Source of the DNA: a virus
Taxonomy: Duplodnaviria > Caudoviricetes
Reading direction: 5' to 3' (one strand)
IMG/VR virus record: IMGVR_UViG_3300011439_000001
Coordinates: 1 to 54,264 of that record
Length of the DNA stretch: 54,264 bases
Shown here: positions 3,071-54,264 of the stretch, piece after piece
How the letters are laid out: each line of letters opens with the position of its first letter
How positions within the stretch are numbered: position 1 is the first letter of the stretch
Notes under the pieces: model-generated
The model's input: the letters and a program-made list of their open reading frames with translations, nothing else
The model's database searches: none
Told to the model about the DNA's origin: nothing
Position numbers and translations under genes: made by a program

Positions 3071-3240
3071 TCGACTACCCTCTTATGCCGTTTGTCATAC
3101 AATTCTCTCTCGCGTCTTAGATGTTCGATACGCATTTCGTATCGCCTAACTTTTTCTTCCATAGCATCTAGCTCCCCCTGTGTGCGTACAGAATTCTCTT
3201 TGCCCTCGCGACCAAGTAACCGTTTTATCCAATTTCTCAT
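3067..3240 (-). CDS. Small coiled-coil protein (57 aa)
   Basis: Read manually as MRNWIKRLLGREGKENSVRTQGELDAMEEKVRRYEMRIEHLRR...; fills the gap with ATGA overlaps on both sides. Confidence 0.7.
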   Translation of the reverse strand: MRNWIKRLLGREGKENSVRTQGELDAMEEKVRRYEMRIEHLRRERELYDKRHKRVVE

Positions 3241-3455
3241 GGCTTTCGTTCCGCAGCTTCCAGAGCTTTTTGCGTAACATCAGCTTGCTTATAAACAAGC
3301 TCCAATGCGCGATCCTTCTCGGCAAGTGCGCGCTCATACGTTGCTCGCGGAACAATCCATCCTTTAAGAAAAGCAACACAAGCAGCAGCAAGAATACCTA
3401 ATGCGCCAGCATTAGATAGCCATTGAAGAAGTGGGTCTGTACTGTTCTGCATCAT
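3237..3455 (-). CDS. Membrane protein (holin-like)
   Basis: TM helix followed by GWIVPRATYER, a pattern typical of actinophage membrane proteins near lysis genes. Confidence 0.7.
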   Translation of the reverse strand: MMQNSTDPLLQWLSNAGALGILAAACVAFLKGWIVPRATYERALAEKDRALELVYKQADVTQKALEAAERKP

Positions 3456-4117
3456 TCATTTGGTCGTCTATATATTTGTGGAAGTTCATCTTCCGCGCCA
3501 GCACCAAAGTTCTGCCAACCAAGTTGTTGACCACCGAAGTTAGATACAACGCCAATACCACCATAGAGACTTGTTGTATAAGTAGTGTCAGCGGCGCTTA
3601 CAACAAGTGTCCAAGTACCTCCTACGGGATCACCACCAGGGCAAACCCATCCTTCGACGTTACTTCCATTTCGACGAATAAGCATCCACTCATTAGCTGG
3701 CCCTGTAGGTGTTGTGTCAATAAACGAACCAGGATAACTTCCATCGTGGCGTCGAAGTGTATATAGGTCGCCTACTGATTCCCAACGGAAACGATACCCA
3801 ACGGGGCCAGAGCCAGGACTAGGATTTTGTAGTAATGTAATCTGCCAAGCAGTACCATTAACATCACCGCCACCTACTGTTCTACCCCATGCTTCAGCGT
3901 CATCACCATCCATCGACAGTGATTTCCAATACGTCATCGAGTTCGTAAAGAACTCTTGGTGAGTAACACTAGCATCATGGGCGACTTCATTATCACACCA
4001 AAATCCCGAATGTACTCTTCCCCATAGAGTAGGAGCCGCTTCACCAGCTAGCAGATCACCTTGTGCATATGAGGTAAAGTCATCAAGAATATCTGATGAT
4101 TGTCTAATATCTGCCAT
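3452..4117 (-). CDS. Minor tail or receptor-binding protein, lectin-like beta-sandwich
   Basis: ILDDFT...W...DTTY...GIG...NFGAG pattern, paralogous to three proteins at 20.7-27.3 kb. Confidence 0.65.
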   Translation of the reverse strand: MADIRQSSDILDDFTSYAQGDLLAGEAAPTLWGRVHSGFWCDNEVAHDASVTHQEFFTNSMTYWKSLSMDGDDAEAWGRTVGGGDVNGTAWQITLLQNPSPGSGPVGYRFRWESVGDLYTLRRHDGSYPGSFIDTTPTGPANEWMLIRRNGSNVEGWVCPGGDPVGGTWTLVVSAADTTYTTSLYGGIGVVSNFGGQQLGWQNFGAGAEDELPQIYRRPNE

Positions 4118-35420: not shown

Positions 35421-35449
35421 TTGACTTCCTTCCCGTTTTGTGTTAATCT
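35421..35449 (+). promoter_or_regulatory. sigma70-type promoter with extended -10
   Basis: TTGACT-N17-TAATCT with TG upstream of the -10; intergenic. Confidence 0.7.
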
Positions 35450-35482
35450 GTTCCAACATATTTAGTAACTATGGGGGTGGCG

Positions 35483-35713
35483 ATGGACACTGTTAAAATG
35501 CGCGATGTTCGATTTATGCGCGATGAGTATATTCTAGTAATTGACGGTACCGACCACGCAACACAATTTATGGTAGCTTGTCGATCGGTGGCAGAAGCTA
35601 CTATTCGTAGTAACTTCCGATGGTGGTTTAAATCAGTCGAAGGAACTCTCTCACAAGAAGCCGTGCTAGTTAGCGATATGTCTTGGCACGTTGTAATTGA
35701 GTTTGGTGACTAA
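35483..35713 (+). CDS. Hypothetical protein
   Basis: GGGGGTG RBS before ATG 35483. Confidence 0.65.
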   Translation: MDTVKMRDVRFMRDEYILVIDGTDHATQFMVACRSVAEATIRSNFRWWFKSVEGTLSQEAVLVSDMSWHVVIEFGD

Positions 35714-37667: not shown

Positions 37668-38100
37668 CAAGGTCAATAAATCAAAGATGTACGGGTATGC
37701 TGTTCAGTTGTATGAAGCAATGGATAATCAGGCAGAGGATGGAATATATGTAGGTAAGGTGGTTGATACATTCAACTCACTTCATATATCCGGCTCACAT
37801 TATACTACACTATTCAATGCACTCAAAGAACTAGGTTGTATAGAACTTCTGGATCGTGGGGTACGCGGTAGGCCGACACGCTACCGTATGCATGGCCCTC
37901 CCGATGAAGCCGCATACGACACACGTTATGAATCAGGCTTGACAGCGGGGGAGAAACCTGCTACCGTGTCGGTTACAGAGTTGGAAAAACGGATAGCGAC
38001 ATTAGAAGGGAGGTTAAAAGGATTACAGATCAAGCAAGTGCTAGTGAATTACGAAGAGAGAATCGTAGCACTAGAGAAGTTGAAAGGGGGTAGCAAGTAA
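37660..38100 (+). CDS. Winged-HTH DNA-binding protein with C-terminal coiled coil
   Basis: YTTLFNALKELGCIELLDRGVRGRPTRY followed by a heptad tail. Confidence 0.7.
   Translation: MSSKVNKSKMYGYAVQLYEAMDNQAEDGIYVGKVVDTFNSLHISGSHYTTLFNALKELGCIELLDRGVRGRPTRYRMHGPPDEAAYDTRYESGLTAGEKPATVSVTELEKRIATLEGRLKGLQIKQVLVNYEERIVALEKLKGGSK
37939..37967 (+). promoter_or_regulatory. Intragenic sigma70-type promoter
   Basis: TTGACA-N17-TACCGT with TG extension; same -35 and -10 as the 38731 promoter. Confidence 0.65.
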
Positions 38101-38174
38101 AAATTATGGCAAGGCAACGCAATAAGAAATCCGATAATGATACTAATACACAAAACACAGGAGAACAGAATACA

Positions 38175-38468
38175 ATGACTGATCTTATGTTCGAGACGCT
38201 TAGTGATGATGAGTTGGGTGAGGCGCTTTCTTCGGCTCGCGCGAAGGGTGAGTATAAGTCTATCCTTCAGCAGATCGTTGATGGTGGAGTTCGTGCAGCT
38301 CGTATTCCTACTGATCGTGGCCCATTTGAGGGACGTAAGGCATCTACGGTCAAGACGGGATTTGAGAATGCTCGCAAGGCTGACGATGCACCTGAAGAGT
38401 TCAAGCAGCTTAAGGTGTCCAGCAAGAAGGGTAACGTGTACATCGTGAACCAGGCGGTTGCATCGTAA
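38175..38468 (+). CDS. Hypothetical protein, paralog of 31653..31988 (alternative start 38106)
   Basis: AGGAG upstream; MTDLMFETLSDDE...RAKGE...FEGRK. Confidence 0.8.
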   Translation: MTDLMFETLSDDELGEALSSARAKGEYKSILQQIVDGGVRAARIPTDRGPFEGRKASTVKTGFENARKADDAPEEFKQLKVSSKKGNVYIVNQAVAS

Positions 38469-38485
38469 GTAAGTACGTTTGGAAC

Positions 38486-38524
38486 GGGGTAGTTGTGGGT
38501 ATATATCACACTTGCAACTACCCC
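38486..38524 (+). terminator. 15-bp hairpin after 38468 (putative terminator or structured RNA)
   Basis: GGGGTAGTTGTGGGT / ACTTGCAACTACCCC, including G-U pairs. Confidence 0.6.
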
Positions 38525-38584
38525 CTCCATACTAAACGTCATATGAGAAGTACACCCTTCAATATGATGACGTTTAGTATGGAG
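38525..38584. repeat. Perfect 18-bp inverted repeat
   Basis: CTCCATACTAAACGTCAT (38525-38542) / ATGACGTTTAGTATGGAG (38567-38584). Confidence 0.9.
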
Positions 38585-38730
38585 AAGAGCTGGATATACA
38601 AGTATCATATGCATCCTGCGCTCGTTGCCAGTTTTTATACCGAGCAGGAGTTTGTCGATCATATGTTCATCTGGCTGATCTATGCTAACTATGGAGTTCT
38701 TCTATCAATGGAAGAACTATCGGTAGCAGC

Positions 38731-38759
38731 TTGACAGATCGGTAGTTTTATGCTACCGT
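38731..38759 (+). promoter_or_regulatory. sigma70-type promoter upstream of the structured non-coding region
   Basis: TTGACA-N17-TACCGT with TG extension; overlapped by the inverted repeat CGGTAG/CTACCG. Confidence 0.7.
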
Positions 38760-38765
38760 CTGCCG

Positions 38766-39400
38766 ATGAGTTGCTACCCCCATGTAGTTACTCAGAAATG
38801 CGGGGAGTGAAAGTTCAGCAGTTGTAGTGTGAGCTACAATCGCGTTCCGGTAGCTTCCCGCATTTCGTATTAATAGATCTTTGACAATCTAAGCAGGTAC
38901 AGAGATTTGCCCATATAGGGCAATTAAGTGTAGGGTAGAAATATCAATAAAGACCCACCAAGGTCACTACCCTACATAAGTGTGGAGTTAATGGTTGCGC
39001 TATAAGCGTAGGGGTGTAACTTAAAATGCGCCGCAGCATCCTCCCCAGAGGAAGTTACATTCCCACCCTCACCATTAACTCCACAATATAATTAAGCGTG
39101 CCACATGGCGGTCTACGGTACAAACCGCGATTGGTAGTACATTGTACATGCTACCGATTGAAATATACGCTGATGCGTAAATGCGGTGTAGATGAAACGG
39201 CGCTTGGGTATAGGTTGTAAATCAGCCATGTCCTATACCCGATATTACTGTAGAGAGTGCAAGCACTATGGTACTCCACTAGTCTACGGGCTAGCATAGT
39301 AAGAATCCATAGGCTGACAACTATAATAGCCCATCCACATAAGGGTGGGGACAGTAAGGTTAAACAACAAACAGGCACTCAGCCTTACTGGTATTCTTGT
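38766..39400 (+). ncRNA. Large, highly structured non-coding RNA or RNA array of unknown family
   Basis: No credible ORF. About ten consecutive helical domains with G-U pairs that favour the + strand, e.g. 38795-38807/38854-38866, 38928-38938/38967-38977, 38981-38995/39071-39085, 39204-39214/39232-39242 and 39352-39361/39381-39390. Confidence 0.7.
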
Positions 39401-39422
39401 AATCTACTAGGAGGTAGAAGTC

Positions 39423-40067
39423 CTGAGAGGACTAGCTGCCATACTAGCCATATCCGTTGCGTTACTACTTGTGGTGATGTTTACTACAGGTGCATCGGAG
39501 GCAACTAGCCAACAGCAAAGTACCACAGGAGATAGTAGGGTACTGGTACAAAAGTATGACAATGCTGTAGATAAGGTAACAGAAACTCTTTGGAATCTGA
39601 ATCACAAGAGTAATTGTAACCTTAATCGAGCTAGGAAGTATATTAGTAACAAGCGAAAAGCTACATGGGAATGGCAAGATAAAATTTTGGTACCACACAC
39701 CCGTACTAATTATGCAGAGCGAAAAGCTCACGGGTGTAAGTACATTAAGTGGTTAGGTAAAAGATGGGCAACTAATGCAGAGGGTGCTTTCAGAACTTAT
39801 GTTGATCTTCAAGACCCTGAAGCTGCCATATGTCATGTCTTTGGTAACTACTGTACTCAGGCACTAGCAGTTACAGCTTGTGAATCGGGACACAGTAGAA
39901 CACCGAGAGCTACCAATGGACAGTATCTAGGAATGTTTCAGATGGGTAGCTTTGCTCGTTCCACATATGGACATGGCAATACACCACTTGAACAGGCAAT
40001 TGCTGCATATAAATACTTTGTTGCATCGGGGCGAGATTGGTCGCCTTGGAGTTGCAAGCCTTATTAA
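39423..40067 (+). CDS. Secreted lysozyme-like (Rpf/SLT-type) transglycosylase; probable CUG start
   Basis: ACESG (catalytic Glu), NGQYLGMFQM, EQAIAA and WSPWSC. GGAGGT lies 7 nt before in-frame CTG 39423, which gives the signal peptide MRGLAAILAISVALLLVVMFTTGASEA. Confidence 0.8.
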   Translation: MRGLAAILAISVALLLVVMFTTGASEATSQQQSTTGDSRVLVQKYDNAVDKVTETLWNLNHKSNCNLNRARKYISNKRKATWEWQDKILVPHTRTNYAERKAHGCKYIKWLGKRWATNAEGAFRTYVDLQDPEAAICHVFGNYCTQALAVTACESGHSRTPRATNGQYLGMFQMGSFARSTYGHGNTPLEQAIAAYKYFVASGRDWSPWSCKPY

Positions 40068-40212: not shown

Positions 40213-40279
40213 ATATCTCAGATGCACTAGATGTAGTTGCTAAAGCAAGACTCTACTATGCATTGGAGGGGAGGTAACA

Positions 40280-40366
40280 ATGCGTTGGGAAACTGAAGCA
40301 CCTGAGCCTACTGAGCCAGCACCCGATGACGGTGGTGGCGATGATGAACCTAGTGTGCCAGAGTAA
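40280..40366 (+). CDS. Tiny acidic Pro-rich peptide (28 aa)
   Basis: GGAGGT RBS; MRWETEAPEPTEPAPDDGGGDDEPSVPE. Confidence 0.55.
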   Translation: MRWETEAPEPTEPAPDDGGGDDEPSVPE

Positions 40367-40391
40367 GTAGTTAAAGAGTGCCGTGTATCGG

Positions 40392-40485
40392 CAGTAACGG
40401 TAATGGGTGTCGTGGCAGACGCAATCTATAGTGAATACTAGTTAGCCTAGCTATAGAGTAGGTTCGATTCCTACAACCGTTATTG
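40392..40485 (+). ncRNA. tRNA-like RNA with non-canonical anticodon arm and no encoded CCA
   Basis: T arm GTAGG-TTCGATT-CCTAC, D-like arm GTGTC-GTGGCA-GACGC, and closing stem CAGTAACGGT/ACCGTTATTG. Confidence 0.65.
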
Positions 40486-40543
40486 AGCTACGTGAGGAAG
40501 CTATAGCCCGTGGAATTCGGGTCAAGAGTTGAAGCGTAGCTCA
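40484..40543 (+). ncRNA. Stem / internal-loop / hairpin element
   Basis: TGAGCTACG/CGTAGCTCA enclosing GCCCG-TGGAATT-CGGGT. Confidence 0.45.
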
Positions 40544-40547
40544 TCTA

Positions 40548-40991
40548 TTGAGTGCCTGCTTAGATTATGAACCTTACATAGATATATGCCCCAATTGTGG
40601 GCATAATAAAGAACTCGTTGAGTCGAGTGGTTGGTGCATCCCTTGTACTAAAGCGCATAACTTATGCATTGATTGTGGAACAGAAATACCGGAATCTCAC
40701 CAACGTATACTATGTTGGGATTGCAAGGAAGAACGGTGGCTTAAAAAGTACGGTGATCTAATTGAGTACCTTATGTTAACAGGGCTAAGTTTTAACAAAG
40801 CTCGATTGATGGTAGCTAATGCAATCAGACCACTATGCGTAGTTTGCCAAGGCCCAATAAAAGGGGGCACACCGGGAGAATCCTTATTTTGCTCCGCAAC
40901 TATTAAGTGCAAGAGGATACGCAATAAGTATCGCCGTCTAATAGCAGGAGGTATGGCACCTAATCGTGCTATAGATCAAGCGTTCAAATAA
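40548..40991 (+). CDS. Multi-CxxC zinc-binding protein
   Basis: Five CxxC motifs plus CxxxxxC; start position uncertain. Confidence 0.7.
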   Translation: MSACLDYEPYIDICPNCGHNKELVESSGWCIPCTKAHNLCIDCGTEIPESHQRILCWDCKEERWLKKYGDLIEYLMLTGLSFNKARLMVANAIRPLCVVCQGPIKGGTPGESLFCSATIKCKRIRNKYRRLIAGGMAPNRAIDQAFK

Positions 40992-50782: not shown

Positions 50783-53209
50783 ATGCCAGTTCGTAAGCAC
50801 CCATTAGCAGAATGCGAGAAATGTCCGTTGCAGCGTAAACGGTGTGCGCCCTCGATAAAACCACCACAGGCTACAACGGCAGTAGTTTCTAGATCACCGG
50901 GAAAATACGAAGGTATGGCAGGTAAGCCGTTTTCCGGCCCTAGTGGAAAAGTTCTAGACAATCTGCTGAAACGCAATGGTAAGACAAGAAGCGAGGTAAT
51001 GCTAACTAATGTTGTCCTATGTGAGATTGATGGTACTAAAGTACCGTCGGAAGCGATTAAAGCGTGCGCTCCAAGATTGCATGATGAGCTATCAGGGATT
51101 AGTCTTGTCATTGCCGCAGGAACAGAAGCAGTTAACTTTCTCTGCGGACGAGGGAACATTGATCGTTACCGAGGCTATCGTATTCAACAAGAGGGACGAA
51201 CAGTTGTCGCTACCAATAACCCTGCACTTGTTCTTCGCGACGATGCTACGTTTCCAAATCTTAAACGAGATTTCAAAAGAGCATTTAATCCAAACCCTCC
51301 AACACCATATCCCAACGTCGAGGTAATAGAGAATCTTAAAGATGCCAAGCTACTCATACAATCAATCGGAACCGGAAACGATAAGGTTGCGGCAGATATT
51401 GAATCTCGCGGAGGTCTTACCCACCGAGCGACTCTTATTTCGTTGCAATTCAGTGTTGACGGAGCTAATGCCTACGTTCTCGGAGAACGCGAGAAACTTT
51501 TTGACAACGAAGATTTCATTAGAGATTATCTACGACCCCTCTTTGAATCCCGACATATACGTTTTATCTGGCACAATGGAAAGTTCGATACCAAAATCCT
51601 CATACACACCTATCGAATCAAAGCCAGAGTTGACGAGGACACGATTCTCCTCTCTTATGCGTTGGATGAAAGATCGGGTGGGGATGACGCGATAGGTATT
51701 CATGGCCTTGAATATCTATTGATGGAAGAATTTGGTTGGCCGCACTATACTAGCGCAGCTATTGAGCGCGCTAAGAAAACAGGGGTAGTAGAGGACTATG
51801 ACGAATTTTACGAGTATGCTGGTAGGGATGTTGGTGGGACTCATTCTCTCTTCGATCTTTACCATCCTATGGCTGTTGCTGATGATGTTATACAACCCTA
51901 TAAGGACATACTCATTAAGGGAACTAACGATCTTGTTATTCCTGCCGAGCTTGCTGGCATCGTTTATGACGTTAATCGTGCTGCTGATCTACATGAGTTT
52001 GTAGTAGAACCGGAACTGCGTGATCTTAGAGAGAAGATGAGAGAGTGGGTAGACAAACCTGAACTCAATCCCAATAGTCCACAACAAATGGCAGCTATAC
52101 TATATGATGATTGGGGTATCGACCATGCAATGCGTAAGCGACCCGACAAGAAGAACAGTGTAGATGATGCAGCAAGACAAGAAATCCTGGCTGGACGTTT
52201 TACTTTCAAGAATCGTATGGTCACACGTCGAGAAGGTACGAAGGTTATTGCAGAGCCAGCGCATGATGAAGCAGAACGTAGAGAACACTACAGAGGCTTC
52301 GTTGAATTACACCATCGTTCTCAGGAACTCGTTAAACAAGATTCCACCTACCTGATTGGACTCATAAAGAATGCCGAGCAAGACCCCGAAAGTAGAATCT
52401 ACACTGATCTGCTCCTATTTGGTACTAATTCAGGACGACTATCCTCACGTAGGCCGAATCTACTCAATATCACACGACCGAAAGAAGGGCTACCAAATAT
52501 CAGAAACCTCTTTAGAGCGAGCAACGGCAGAAAGATTGTTAACGCCGATTTCTCTCAGGCTGAGCTACGGTGTATCGCTGCCTTCAGTGGTGATACTCTA
52601 CTATCGACCATCTACGAAGAGGGGCGCGACCTTCATTCTGAATGCGCTGAAAGATTCTATGGAAAAAGTTTCACAAAGCATAACAGAGACGTTGCCAAGA
52701 ACGTGAACTTCGGTGTGTTCTATAGACAGAGTGCTGCAACATTCCAGGAGAAGCACGACATTCCAGAGCGAGAGGCACAACCTTACATTGACTGGATATG
52801 GAAAACATTTACTGGTGTTGGAGCATGGGAAAAAAGTATCGAAACAGAGATTCACACTAAGGGAACACTTACTTCTCCATTTGGAAGGAAGCGACGTTTC
52901 CATCTTCTCACGGATTTCAATAAGGAAGGAATCTATCGAGAGGGAATTAACTTCTATCCTCAATCAACTGCGTCTGACCTCACATTCACATCTGCCATCA
53001 TCCTTGCAAATCAAGTTGATTCTAGAAGGGCAGTTCTATTACTCATCCCATATGATGCAATCTTGGCAGATGTTGAAGATGACTACGTTGATGAATACTC
53101 CATAATCTGCAAACAAGTAATGGAGTCAAGAGCCAAAGATGCATTGGGATGGACATTGCCATTTAAAGCAGAAATACAGATTGGCCCATCGTGGGGAGAA
53201 GCAATATGA
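50783..53209 (+). CDS. Family A DNA polymerase with N-terminal family-4 UDG-like domain and 3'-5' exonuclease
   Basis: UDG-like CEKCPL...PFSGPSG...TNVVLC; exonuclease DIE, HNGKFD and YAGRD; polymerase GRLSS, DFSQAELR, AKNVNFG and QSTASD. Confidence 0.93.
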   Translation: MPVRKHPLAECEKCPLQRKRCAPSIKPPQATTAVVSRSPGKYEGMAGKPFSGPSGKVLDNLLKRNGKTRSEVMLTNVVLCEIDGTKVPSEAIKACAPRLHDELSGISLVIAAGTEAVNFLCGRGNIDRYRGYRIQQEGRTVVATNNPALVLRDDATFPNLKRDFKRAFNPNPPTPYPNVEVIENLKDAKLLIQSIGTGNDKVAADIESRGGLTHRATLISLQFSVDGANAYVLGEREKLFDNEDFIRDYLRPLFESRHIRFIWHNGKFDTKILIHTYRIKARVDEDTILLSYALDERSGGDDAIGIHGLEYLLMEEFGWPHYTSAAIERAKKTGVVEDYDEFYEYAGRDVGGTHSLFDLYHPMAVADDVIQPYKDILIKGTNDLVIPAELAGIVYDVNRAADLHEFVVEPELRDLREKMREWVDKPELNPNSPQQMAAILYDDWGIDHAMRKRPDKKNSVDDAARQEILAGRFTFKNRMVTRREGTKVIAEPAHDEAERREHYRGFVELHHRSQELVKQDSTYLIGLIKNAEQDPESRIYTDLLLFGTNSGRLSSRRPNLLNITRPKEGLPNIRNLFRASNGRKIVNADFSQAELRCIAAFSGDTLLSTIYEEGRDLHSECAERFYGKSFTKHNRDVAKNVNFGVFYRQSAATFQEKHDIPEREAQPYIDWIWKTFTGVGAWEKSIETEIHTKGTLTSPFGRKRRFHLLTDFNKEGIYREGINFYPQSTASDLTFTSAIILANQVDSRRAVLLLIPYDAILADVEDDYVDEYSIICKQVMESRAKDALGWTLPFKAEIQIGPSWGEAI

Positions 53210-54141: not shown

Positions 54142-54264
54142 CGTCATCATCGCCTGTCTTACTCCTATTACTCCGTTTATATTTGCACTAATGTTTGGGA
54201 GGTGGAGTCTGTGAGGCTCTGGCTGCAAACTCGCGAAGGCTCTTGGTGGGTCTGGCTTGGGAAC
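54142..54264. repeat. Terminal direct repeat, right copy (123 bp)
   Basis: Identical to 1-123. Confidence 0.97.

Follow-up and report, generated by a model that had tools for sequence, protein, structure and literature searches.

A structured plus-strand region without coding content

The question raised by this locus is what a long gene-free stretch is doing in a siphophage genome that is otherwise packed with genes. The genome is IMG/VR record IMGVR_UViG_3300011439_000001 (Duplodnaviria; Caudoviricetes), a complete virus record of 54,264 bp with direct terminal repeats, which was analysed over its full length and is called the window here; the stretch lies at 38766-39400 on the plus strand. 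A first-pass annotation had proposed an ornate non-coding RNA of about 630 nucleotides (nt) at this place, either one new large RNA class or an array of small RNAs processed at the linkers. Our analysis confirmed its observation of a real, plus-strand, non-coding and heavily folded RNA. The reading we favour, tentatively and with somewhat less than even confidence, is that of a multi-domain regulatory leader RNA, new to Rfam, whose C-rich motifs would mask ribosome-binding sites (RBSs) of the phage.

As had been noted, the stretch is the longest one free of open reading frames (ORFs). From the stop codon at 38734 to the RBS and CTG codon at 39409 and 39423, a distance of about 675 nt, there is no plus-strand ORF of at least 60 amino acids (aa), and the second-largest gap in the plus-strand arm, read from the ORF list, is 271 nt (40277-40548). 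The plus strand of 38766-39400 folded with a minimum free energy (MFE) of -242.5 kcal/mol, compared to -173.4 ± 4.3 kcal/mol for 20 dinucleotide shuffles, none of which folded as well (z -15.96). The minus strand reached -217.3 kcal/mol (z -5.67), so that the fold of the plus strand was better by 25 kcal/mol. G-U pairs made up 24 of the 208 pairs in the MFE structure, and conserved G-U pairs were present in three of the helices described below (Ha, Hb and P3). When sub-domains were compared with 200 shuffles each, the z-scores were -7.83 for 38766-38980, -8.58 for 38978-39090 (nested domain Hf), -2.70 for 39091-39250 (region B, with 2 of 200 shuffles as good) and -4.62 for 39251-39396 (module C). 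A genome-wide, G+C-corrected scan in 200-nt windows placed 14 of the 25 most over-folded plus-strand windows within 38401-39500, and elsewhere a region held at most three overlapping ones; the 38766-39400 region is the sole sustained folding outlier of the 54-kb genome.

A tblastn search for a decayed gene in 38735-39410, for which 3784 ORF fragments of all related loci served as queries, found no protein remnant. The matches obtained there fell in several frames of both strands and were explained by homology of module C at the nucleotide level, and decayed genes were rejected. Homologs of the 66/77/80-aa ORF gave nothing below an E value of 0.6 in the same interval, and the substitutions in the sole overlapping micro-ORF were non-synonymous by reading of the alignment. 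The folding z-score, the strand bias, the comparison of helices below and the absence of a gene remnant support a structured non-coding RNA on the plus strand.

Conserved helices in domain A and module C

Related phages were located via the flanking proteins, and 29 loci from 28 contigs were examined. L033/L036 (the same relative also carries the label L025) is alignable at both ends of the RNA region, and L002 (with L013, L031, L032 and L046) in the 5' half only. In L003, the small ORF that precedes the RNA is followed by 673 nt of different sequence, which is also over-folded (z -6.46). The search for homologs with nhmmer, which had been suggested at the outset, showed domain A (38766-39085) and module C (39251-39396) to be conserved separately. 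Four public runs added further copies of module C. One is a 10.2-kb soil contig with the same layout (X4), alignable at 38522-38798, 38881-38912, 39251-39392 and 39398-39452; the other three are short contigs (X9, X10 and X11) alignable from exactly 39251, each with a different sequence 5' of this position, and their parts without contig cover were excluded from the evidence. Pattern scans of viral, metagenome and genome contigs for further homologs returned only contigs already known, and blastn against the phage collection gave no match. A covariance model of module C (R1), run on 59 sources, found it in the window and L036 only; a diverged copy in L029 was considered and rejected, as R1 matched there only at E values of 2.2-2.8, once in coding sequence.

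Domain A begins with the hairpin Ha (38768-38794; 10-bp stem, loop CCCCAU), which is near-invariant in the window, L033 and L002; its arms do not vary, a G-U pair is conserved and the base of the stem shows one double change. Next comes the long hairpin Hb (38795-38866), whose 14-bp basal stem is topped by a smaller hairpin of 8 bp. L033 and L002 both retain the basal stem, with double changes, and the apical parts are unrelated by sequence, each forming a hairpin in the three phages. Both sides changed in 3 of the 21 pairs of Ha and Hb. A small hairpin at 38876-38907 contains a block conserved in the same phages, CUUUGAYAAUCUWAGCRGGU, and the X4 contig is also alignable over this region (38881-38912). 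Two further hairpins within 38908-38977 (38908-38922 and 38928-38977) belong to the MFE fold of the window only and have no aligned counterpart in L002 or L033. The nested domain Hf (38981-39085) is exactly as first described, with a perfect 15-bp closing stem (38981-38995/39071-39085) around one hairpin and a 12-bp stem with two hairpins of its own; it has three or four helices inside and a single-stranded CCUCC. L033 and L002 retain its closing stem, with changes on both sides in 3 of 12 pairs, and in the distant relative L040 a stem with the outer letters of Hf closes a 59-nt hairpin. The interiors of Hf are unalignable across phages, yet CC[UC]CC is present in all three.

Region B (39091-39250) forms several hairpins, one of them with the palindromic loop UGUACA; nhmmer found no homolog of it in any locus, and tblastn no protein remnant. 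Module C (39251-39396, 145 nt) is composed of the helices P2/P2a/P3, P4 and P5 and a pseudoknot, P1, according to the comparison of the window with L033. All 36 tested pairs were kept (100% paired), and five had changed on both sides (two in P2 and one each in P1, P4 and P5). In slid controls, with the partners shifted by 1-3 columns, there were no double changes and pairing was 22-43%. The 20 differing columns were distributed over P1-P4 (9), the arms of P5 (7) and unpaired positions (4) without breaking any pair; P5 formed 10 of 10 pairs in each phage, in its own register. The loop and junction sequences of module C were invariant. The P4 hairpin of X4 and X10 is longer by about 10 letters, with its flanks kept.

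Six pairings between domains had been proposed, with the caution that six-base matches can arise by chance, and by our arithmetic about 50 complementary 6-mer pairs are indeed expected in 635 nt. Only GAGTGC 39255/GCACTC 39375 was supported, through a U-A to C-G change in L033. This helix, P1 (39255-39260 with 39375-39380), sits in the loop of P5 and therefore makes a pseudoknot. The pairings ACTATG/CATAGT and CCCACCCT/AGGGTGGG are displaced by the local covarying helices P2 and P4, respectively. GCGCCG 39028/CGGCGC 39198 and GTACAA 39118/TTGTAC 39142 are placed by reading of the sequence, and the arms of three other proposed inter-domain pairs are visible in the folds or alignments. Three of the six proposed pairs, other than those with P1, P2 and P4, fall in stretches for which no homolog can be aligned.

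A predicted promoter and a CTG-started gene

A putative sigma-70-type promoter is located at 38731-38759 on the plus strand (TTGACA, a 17-nt spacer with TGn, and TACCGT), with a predicted start at about 38765-38768. The window, L033 and L002 share the arrangement CTTGACA, 14 nt, TGC and TAnnGT immediately behind the small ORF, and the predicted start of about 38766 is 2-3 nt 5' of the first hairpin. Four matches to the pattern TTGACN-N13-15-TGNTANNNT occur in the window, all on the plus strand, against 0.41 expected, and 0 of 100 shuffles reached four. On the ORF map the sites are intergenic in three of the four cases, and the same motif recurs in many relatives. No terminator-like site (G+C-rich hairpin plus U-tract) was found on the plus strand of 38000-40000. 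Given a predicted start at about 38766 and no such site before the RBS, the RNA is therefore read as a long 5' leader of the CTG-started gene.

Repeats that might have served as iterons or operators were rejected. GGTAGC/GCTACC is enriched (5 copies against 0.39 expected), but the copies are hairpin arms and the -10 region, and ATCGGTAG beside the -35 element is not conserved in L033 or L002. Another promoter-like motif, CTTGACA...TGCTACCGT, is located at 37939-37967 inside a 149-aa gene and is followed by GAAGGGAGGTT (about 38003-38013), which encodes LEGRL; both are kept as nucleotides in more than 12 distant relatives.

The gene behind the leader (39409-40067, plus strand) has the RBS AGGAGG at 39409-39414 and a CTG at 39423, and encodes a protein of 214 aa that has a membrane helix at the N-terminus and resembles lysozyme at the C-terminus, where Pfam SLT_3 scored 21.2 bits, under its cut-off of 27. 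In all three phages (window 39409-39425; L033 about 2436-2452; L002 about 3954-3970), the CTG stands 7-8 nt after AGGAGG, with an in-frame stop shortly before it and codons for (K/R)G(L/V)AA behind it; initiation at the next canonical start codon would truncate the membrane helix. The lysozyme-like gene thus appears to start at CTG in all three phages. The homologous signal peptide of L029 starts with ATG.

Module C lies upstream of the lysozyme-like gene in all four contexts with known downstream sequence (window, L033, X4 and X10) and is therefore read as a cis element of that gene, where it would serve a weakly initiated gene directly downstream. Examined as a riboswitch-type element, it showed covarying stems and invariant junctions, with no conserved alternative pairing that links it to the RBS and no terminator. 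A 5'-3' closing helix between Ha and the RBS region, which was seen in the MFE fold of 38766-39425 and in the fold of L002, was absent in L033, where this pairing reached -12.3 kcal/mol (rank 588 of 3045), and was rejected as the principal mechanism. It vanishes once the folded sequence extends 45 nt into the coding region, as the Shine-Dalgarno (SD) sequence then pairs locally with 39438-39445.

Complementarity of Ha to Shine-Dalgarno sequences

Ha carries the invariant GCUACCCCC, which is the exact complement of the extended SD sequence GGGGGUAGC. The SD of a syntenic set of plus-strand genes is GGGGGUAG, found at 35473, 38086, 40994 and 43395 in the window and also in the L002 genome and L036. 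The unusual extended form GGGGGU(A/G)G, which also occurs at position 176 of the window, was observed in all three related phages in a set that includes helicase and nuclease genes. The RNA contains two CC[UC]CC motifs, against 0.27 expected from the plus-strand arm; they are located in the loop of Ha and in the interior of Hf in all three phages, and the remaining 23.6 kb of the arm contain only 10.

When Ha was compared with the whole genome, its best partner was 35462-35484 on the plus strand, the RBS and start of the first gene after a promoter at 35421-35449 and hence a candidate target in trans. At -32.3 kcal/mol, the predicted 21-bp duplex is the best of 13558 windows (mean -9.3, standard deviation 3.4). 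Of 16 dinucleotide-shuffled versions of Ha, none reached this value (best -29.3, mean -26.5). A scan of the L002 genome likewise ranked the syntenic RBS first for Ha; this site follows the homologous promoter, though the gene behind it differs. The contig of the third phage stops short of this site. In six relatives (L004 3587, L040 5308, L054 3239, L058 3960, L069 3882 and L029 8156), the promoter motif is immediately followed by a small hairpin with the anti-SD-like loop CCUCCC, and comparison of these sites suggests that Ha belongs to a recurrent promoter-proximal element.

We propose the following mechanism. The sigma-70-type promoter at 38731-38759 would start the RNA at about 38766, and transcription would run for about 650 nt into the RBS of the CTG-started gene, so that the RNA would be the leader of this lysozyme-like gene and, as we infer, of the replication genes behind it. 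The transcript would be a chain of self-folding modules, consisting of domain A, the poorly conserved region B and the pseudoknotted module C. The stem and loop of Ha would present GCUACCCCC to GGGGGUAGC, and Hf would offer a second single-stranded CCUCC. These C-rich motifs may mask RBSs, with the first gene of the preceding operon (35462-35484) as the strongest case. Judged from these sequence features, the RNA probably controls the translation of phage genes.

Several observations weigh against this proposal. The duplex in the L002 genome reaches only -27.1 kcal/mol, which is within the range of shuffled Ha (mean -26.5 in the window), so that its location alone argues for it. Any C-rich sequence scores well against SD sequences, and half of GCUACCCCC is buried in the stem of Ha. 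The same small-ORF locus holds quite different RNAs without C-rich motifs in related phages, L003 having none in its 673 nt. As for the cis role of module C, no conserved pairing joins it to the RBS, in X4 it stands 87 nt away from the RBS region, and the local partner predicted for the SD and CTG is the coding sequence at 39438-39445 and not the leader. The comparative support comes from three full homologs, a number at which covariation is beyond statistical testing, as two or three sequences give no proper P value for any of the helices; a shuffle control of module C was as high in 19 of 500 cases. Finally, contigs from RNA-type libraries contain module C only, and DNA can occur in such libraries.

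Modularity of the locus and alternative explanations

As a whole, the 635 nt do not form a conserved unit. Among the 29 loci, nhmmer detected module C in L033 only, and it was not found anywhere in the 55-kb genome of L002. In its place, L002 has a structured module of about 165 nt that recurs near-unchanged in L060/L061 in another neighbourhood; this module has sharp ends and five double changes, all in one hairpin. In L033, a 77-aa ORF, related to the ORF after the lysozyme-like gene of the window, lies between A and C. The content of the slot behind the small ORF differs greatly across the wider family. Together with the borders at 39251 and the window-specific region B, these findings do not support the idea of one new large RNA class, and the evidence favours a modular RNA over one indivisible fold. 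The earlier interpretation holds insofar as a structured RNA new to Rfam with at least one comparatively supported pseudoknot is concerned; in place of one giant RNA, we arrived at a modular leader.

The alternative named in the first-pass annotation, an array of smaller units, fits this modularity better than a single class. In its full form, it would mean an array of independent small stable RNAs cut at A/U-rich linkers, with modules of about 100-320 nt acting in trans as decoys or sponges against host factors or defence, and with an incidental link to the downstream gene. We consider this unlikely, though it is the most serious competitor of the leader. The modules have sharp borders and travel separately, as seen for module C, which starts at exactly 39251 in four other contigs, and for the 3' module of L002 with its near-unchanged copies elsewhere and its five double changes in one hairpin. 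Other autonomous RNAs reside at the locus in relatives (a manA RNA in L072, tRNA-like T-arm elements and arrays of 90-110-nt hairpin units, described below). The three short contigs with module C, X9-X11, would also fit; X11 is recorded as an RNA library, X10 is guessed to be one, and X9 carries the mark of probable DNA. Against separate small RNAs, no internal promoter or terminator delimits the units, the same gene follows module C in all four known contexts, and the contigs can neither prove transcription nor show RNA ends.

A broader version of the leader proposal can also be imagined, in which self-folding RNA cassettes would be interchangeable after the small ORF, and the window RNA would represent a new class of riboregulator that titrates RBSs with GGGGGUAGC and thereby shifts the phage's translation between the early and replication phases, possibly with higher-order assembly. 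We regard this as a long shot.

One large ornate RNA with tertiary or quaternary architecture, in which kissing loops would join the domains in analogy to GOLLD, ROOL and cage-forming manA RNAs, is very unlikely. The size, the multibranch domains, the extreme folding z-score and the one supported pseudoknot would suit such an RNA, as would the palindromic loop UGUACA at 39143-39148. The unalignable segments of X4 are close in length to those of the window (85 letters for 82, and 352 for 338), and L072 carries a syntenic manA; manA RNAs are reported, in the accessible text of a preprint, to assemble into decamers and 60-mers (bioRxiv 10.64898/2026.07.01.735769). Such an architecture is, however, hard to reconcile with the loss of module C from L002, the ORF between A and C in L033, the lack of a homolog and the low z of -2.7 for region B, the lack of an Rfam match and the fact that five of the six proposed inter-domain pairings are unsupported or displaced by local helices.

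Hairpin clutter without specific function, such as scars of recombination at a hot spot that are structured only to avoid Rho-dependent termination or nucleases, has a smaller chance still. It would account for the varying content of the locus among relatives and for a region B confined to the window. Module C, however, is far more conserved than the neighbouring coding sequence, as X4 differs from the window by 6 substitutions in 142 nt of module C, plus 11 gapped positions mostly in P4, compared to 47 substitutions in 277 nt of small ORF and promoter. Moreover, the differences are concentrated in helices with pairing preserved, and loop and junction sequences are invariant. The least probable explanation is a DNA-level or transcription-coupled replication element, either an origin whose transcript primes the family-A DNA polymerase in the manner of ColE1 RNA II or a T4 R-loop, or a set of single-stranded DNA hairpins, for although a promoter and a long untranslated structured transcript just 5' of the replication module would suit it and the minus strand is also over-folded relative to shuffles (z -5.67), the plus strand is strongly favoured, the conserved G-U pairs become A-C mismatches on the other strand, the repeats of the region are short families of two or three copies and not iteron-like, the turning point of the cumulative GC skew is near 30 kb and not here, and module swapping among relatives is hard to square with an initiator-matched origin.

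Neighbouring genes and other elements of the locus

The minus strand of the window encodes head, tail and packaging functions (including the major head protein, tape measure and large terminase), and the plus strand from about 30 kb onward the early and replication genes. The replication module of this arm comprises an SNF2 helicase, a PD-(D/E)XK nuclease, a RepB-primase/DUF3987 protein and a family-A DNA polymerase. The polymerase ORF (50783-53209) also encodes an N-terminal domain of the uracil-DNA-glycosylase superfamily. At the ends of the genome, 55 identical letters at 32-86 and 54173-54227 are consistent with the recorded direct terminal repeats. The structured RNA lies within the plus-strand arm, with a conserved small ORF 5' of it and a gene frame that opens at 39411 3' of it.

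The small ORF (38495/38543-38734, plus strand) encodes a protein conserved in L033, L002 and L003, with relatives encoded by 31 metagenome loci, and by this sequence evidence it is a real gene that stops ahead of the RNA. Its product gave no lead in Pfam, PHROG or Atlas, and its neighbours in relatives belong to phrog_15934, of unknown function. An 18-bp perfect inverted repeat with a 24-nt spacer (38525-38542/38567-38584) is near-invariant in three phages, with one double change. This repeat (38525-38584) overlaps candidate start codons of the small ORF, and in L033 also the SD of this ORF; it may act as a translational operator hairpin or as a palindrome for protein binding. The repeat and the small ORF, which together extend over 38525-38734, are both 5' of the promoter and therefore not part of the RNA.

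In other relatives, further structured elements were observed in the slot. L072 contains a manA RNA (RF01745) at 3139-3319 of the syntenic locus, with 59.3 bits against a gathering threshold of 55.2. It overlaps the end of the small ORF, and L072 is a soil or freshwater phage, which places this copy outside the marine and cyanophage setting described for the family. Hairpins resembling the T-arm of a transfer RNA (tRNA), of the GGGTTCAAATCCC type, occur in L058 (about 1428-1540), L074 (about 2680-2700) and L029 (3491-3512) and were not called by ARAGORN or Rfam; one of those in L058 is closed by a long, acceptor-like stem. These hairpins may be tRNA-like elements or remnants of attachment sites, and a tRNA search of 27 related loci with ARAGORN and Rfam found none. 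Arrays of 90-110-nt hairpin units were seen in L003 (1700-2100), L075 (2950-3230), L076, L060, L050 and L066, with a conserved base GTAGTTGAATGAG ... CTCATTGAGCTAC and unrelated interiors. A dispersed REP-like element was rejected, as the three exact matches of the unit motif GAGCTACGTAG in the L003 genome were all at this locus.

Comparison with known RNAs

Only a few large structured phage RNAs have been described, and almost none has a known function. The window RNA is unusually testable among them, as it offers a defined promoter, covariation-supported helices including a pseudoknot and a concrete anti-SD hypothesis. The locus suggests that phages exchange structured RNA modules like gene cassettes, with a catalogued manA RNA in the same slot, and it provides a genomic context for studying the biology of such RNAs.

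A 2023 survey of IMG/VR intergenic regions gives, in its accessible text, 8495 short candidate structures with covariance models (PMC10690425), and single hairpins of the window RNA may already be among these models. A full-text literature search returned nothing that describes the window RNA. When the whole window was searched with the 4227 families of Rfam 15, there were no matches at the gathering thresholds, in agreement with the first-pass annotation, which did not recognise the sequence as GOLLD or ROOL. At E values up to 10, 10 matches were obtained in 38300-39600, none of them to GOLLD, ROOL or manA, and the best had 21.8 bits against a gathering threshold of 86. ARAGORN predicted no tRNA or transfer-messenger RNA genes in the window, which excludes a tRNA array.

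With respect to the proposed pairing with SD sequences, the hairpins of RsaE/RoxS and RNAIII in Firmicutes have C-rich loops complementary to the G-rich SD sequences of several mRNAs. The window differs from these in that its motif stands at the 5' end of a 650-nt leader and not in a short terminated small RNA, that its targets are predicted and that it has no sequence relationship to them. The c4 RNA of phages P1 and P7 (Rfam C4) and the CI RNA of P4 are leader-derived phage antisense RNAs, which are complementary to an RBS elsewhere and block translation. In contrast to them, the window RNA matches no Rfam family, C4 included, and belongs to a phage without any sign of lysogeny control. A stabilising 5'-terminal stem-loop is known from leaders of the ompA type. 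Ha is likewise located 2-3 nt from the predicted 5' end, and a role of this kind would explain Ha only, and neither its invariant loop nor the other 600 nt.

GOLLD (RF01998) and ROOL (RF03087) resemble the window RNA in their length of several hundred nt, their multibranch structure, their presence in tailed-phage genomes and their unknown function. The window RNA differs in having no covariance-model match and no nearby tRNA, whereas the two families often neighbour tRNA genes in phage or prophage DNA, in not being one conserved unit and in directly preceding a gene as its putative leader. For manA RNA, to which the window shows no match even at E values up to 10, the likeness lies in the setting, as manA is a candidate cis-regulatory structured RNA in the 5' untranslated regions of phages, and a true manA occupies the same locus in L072.

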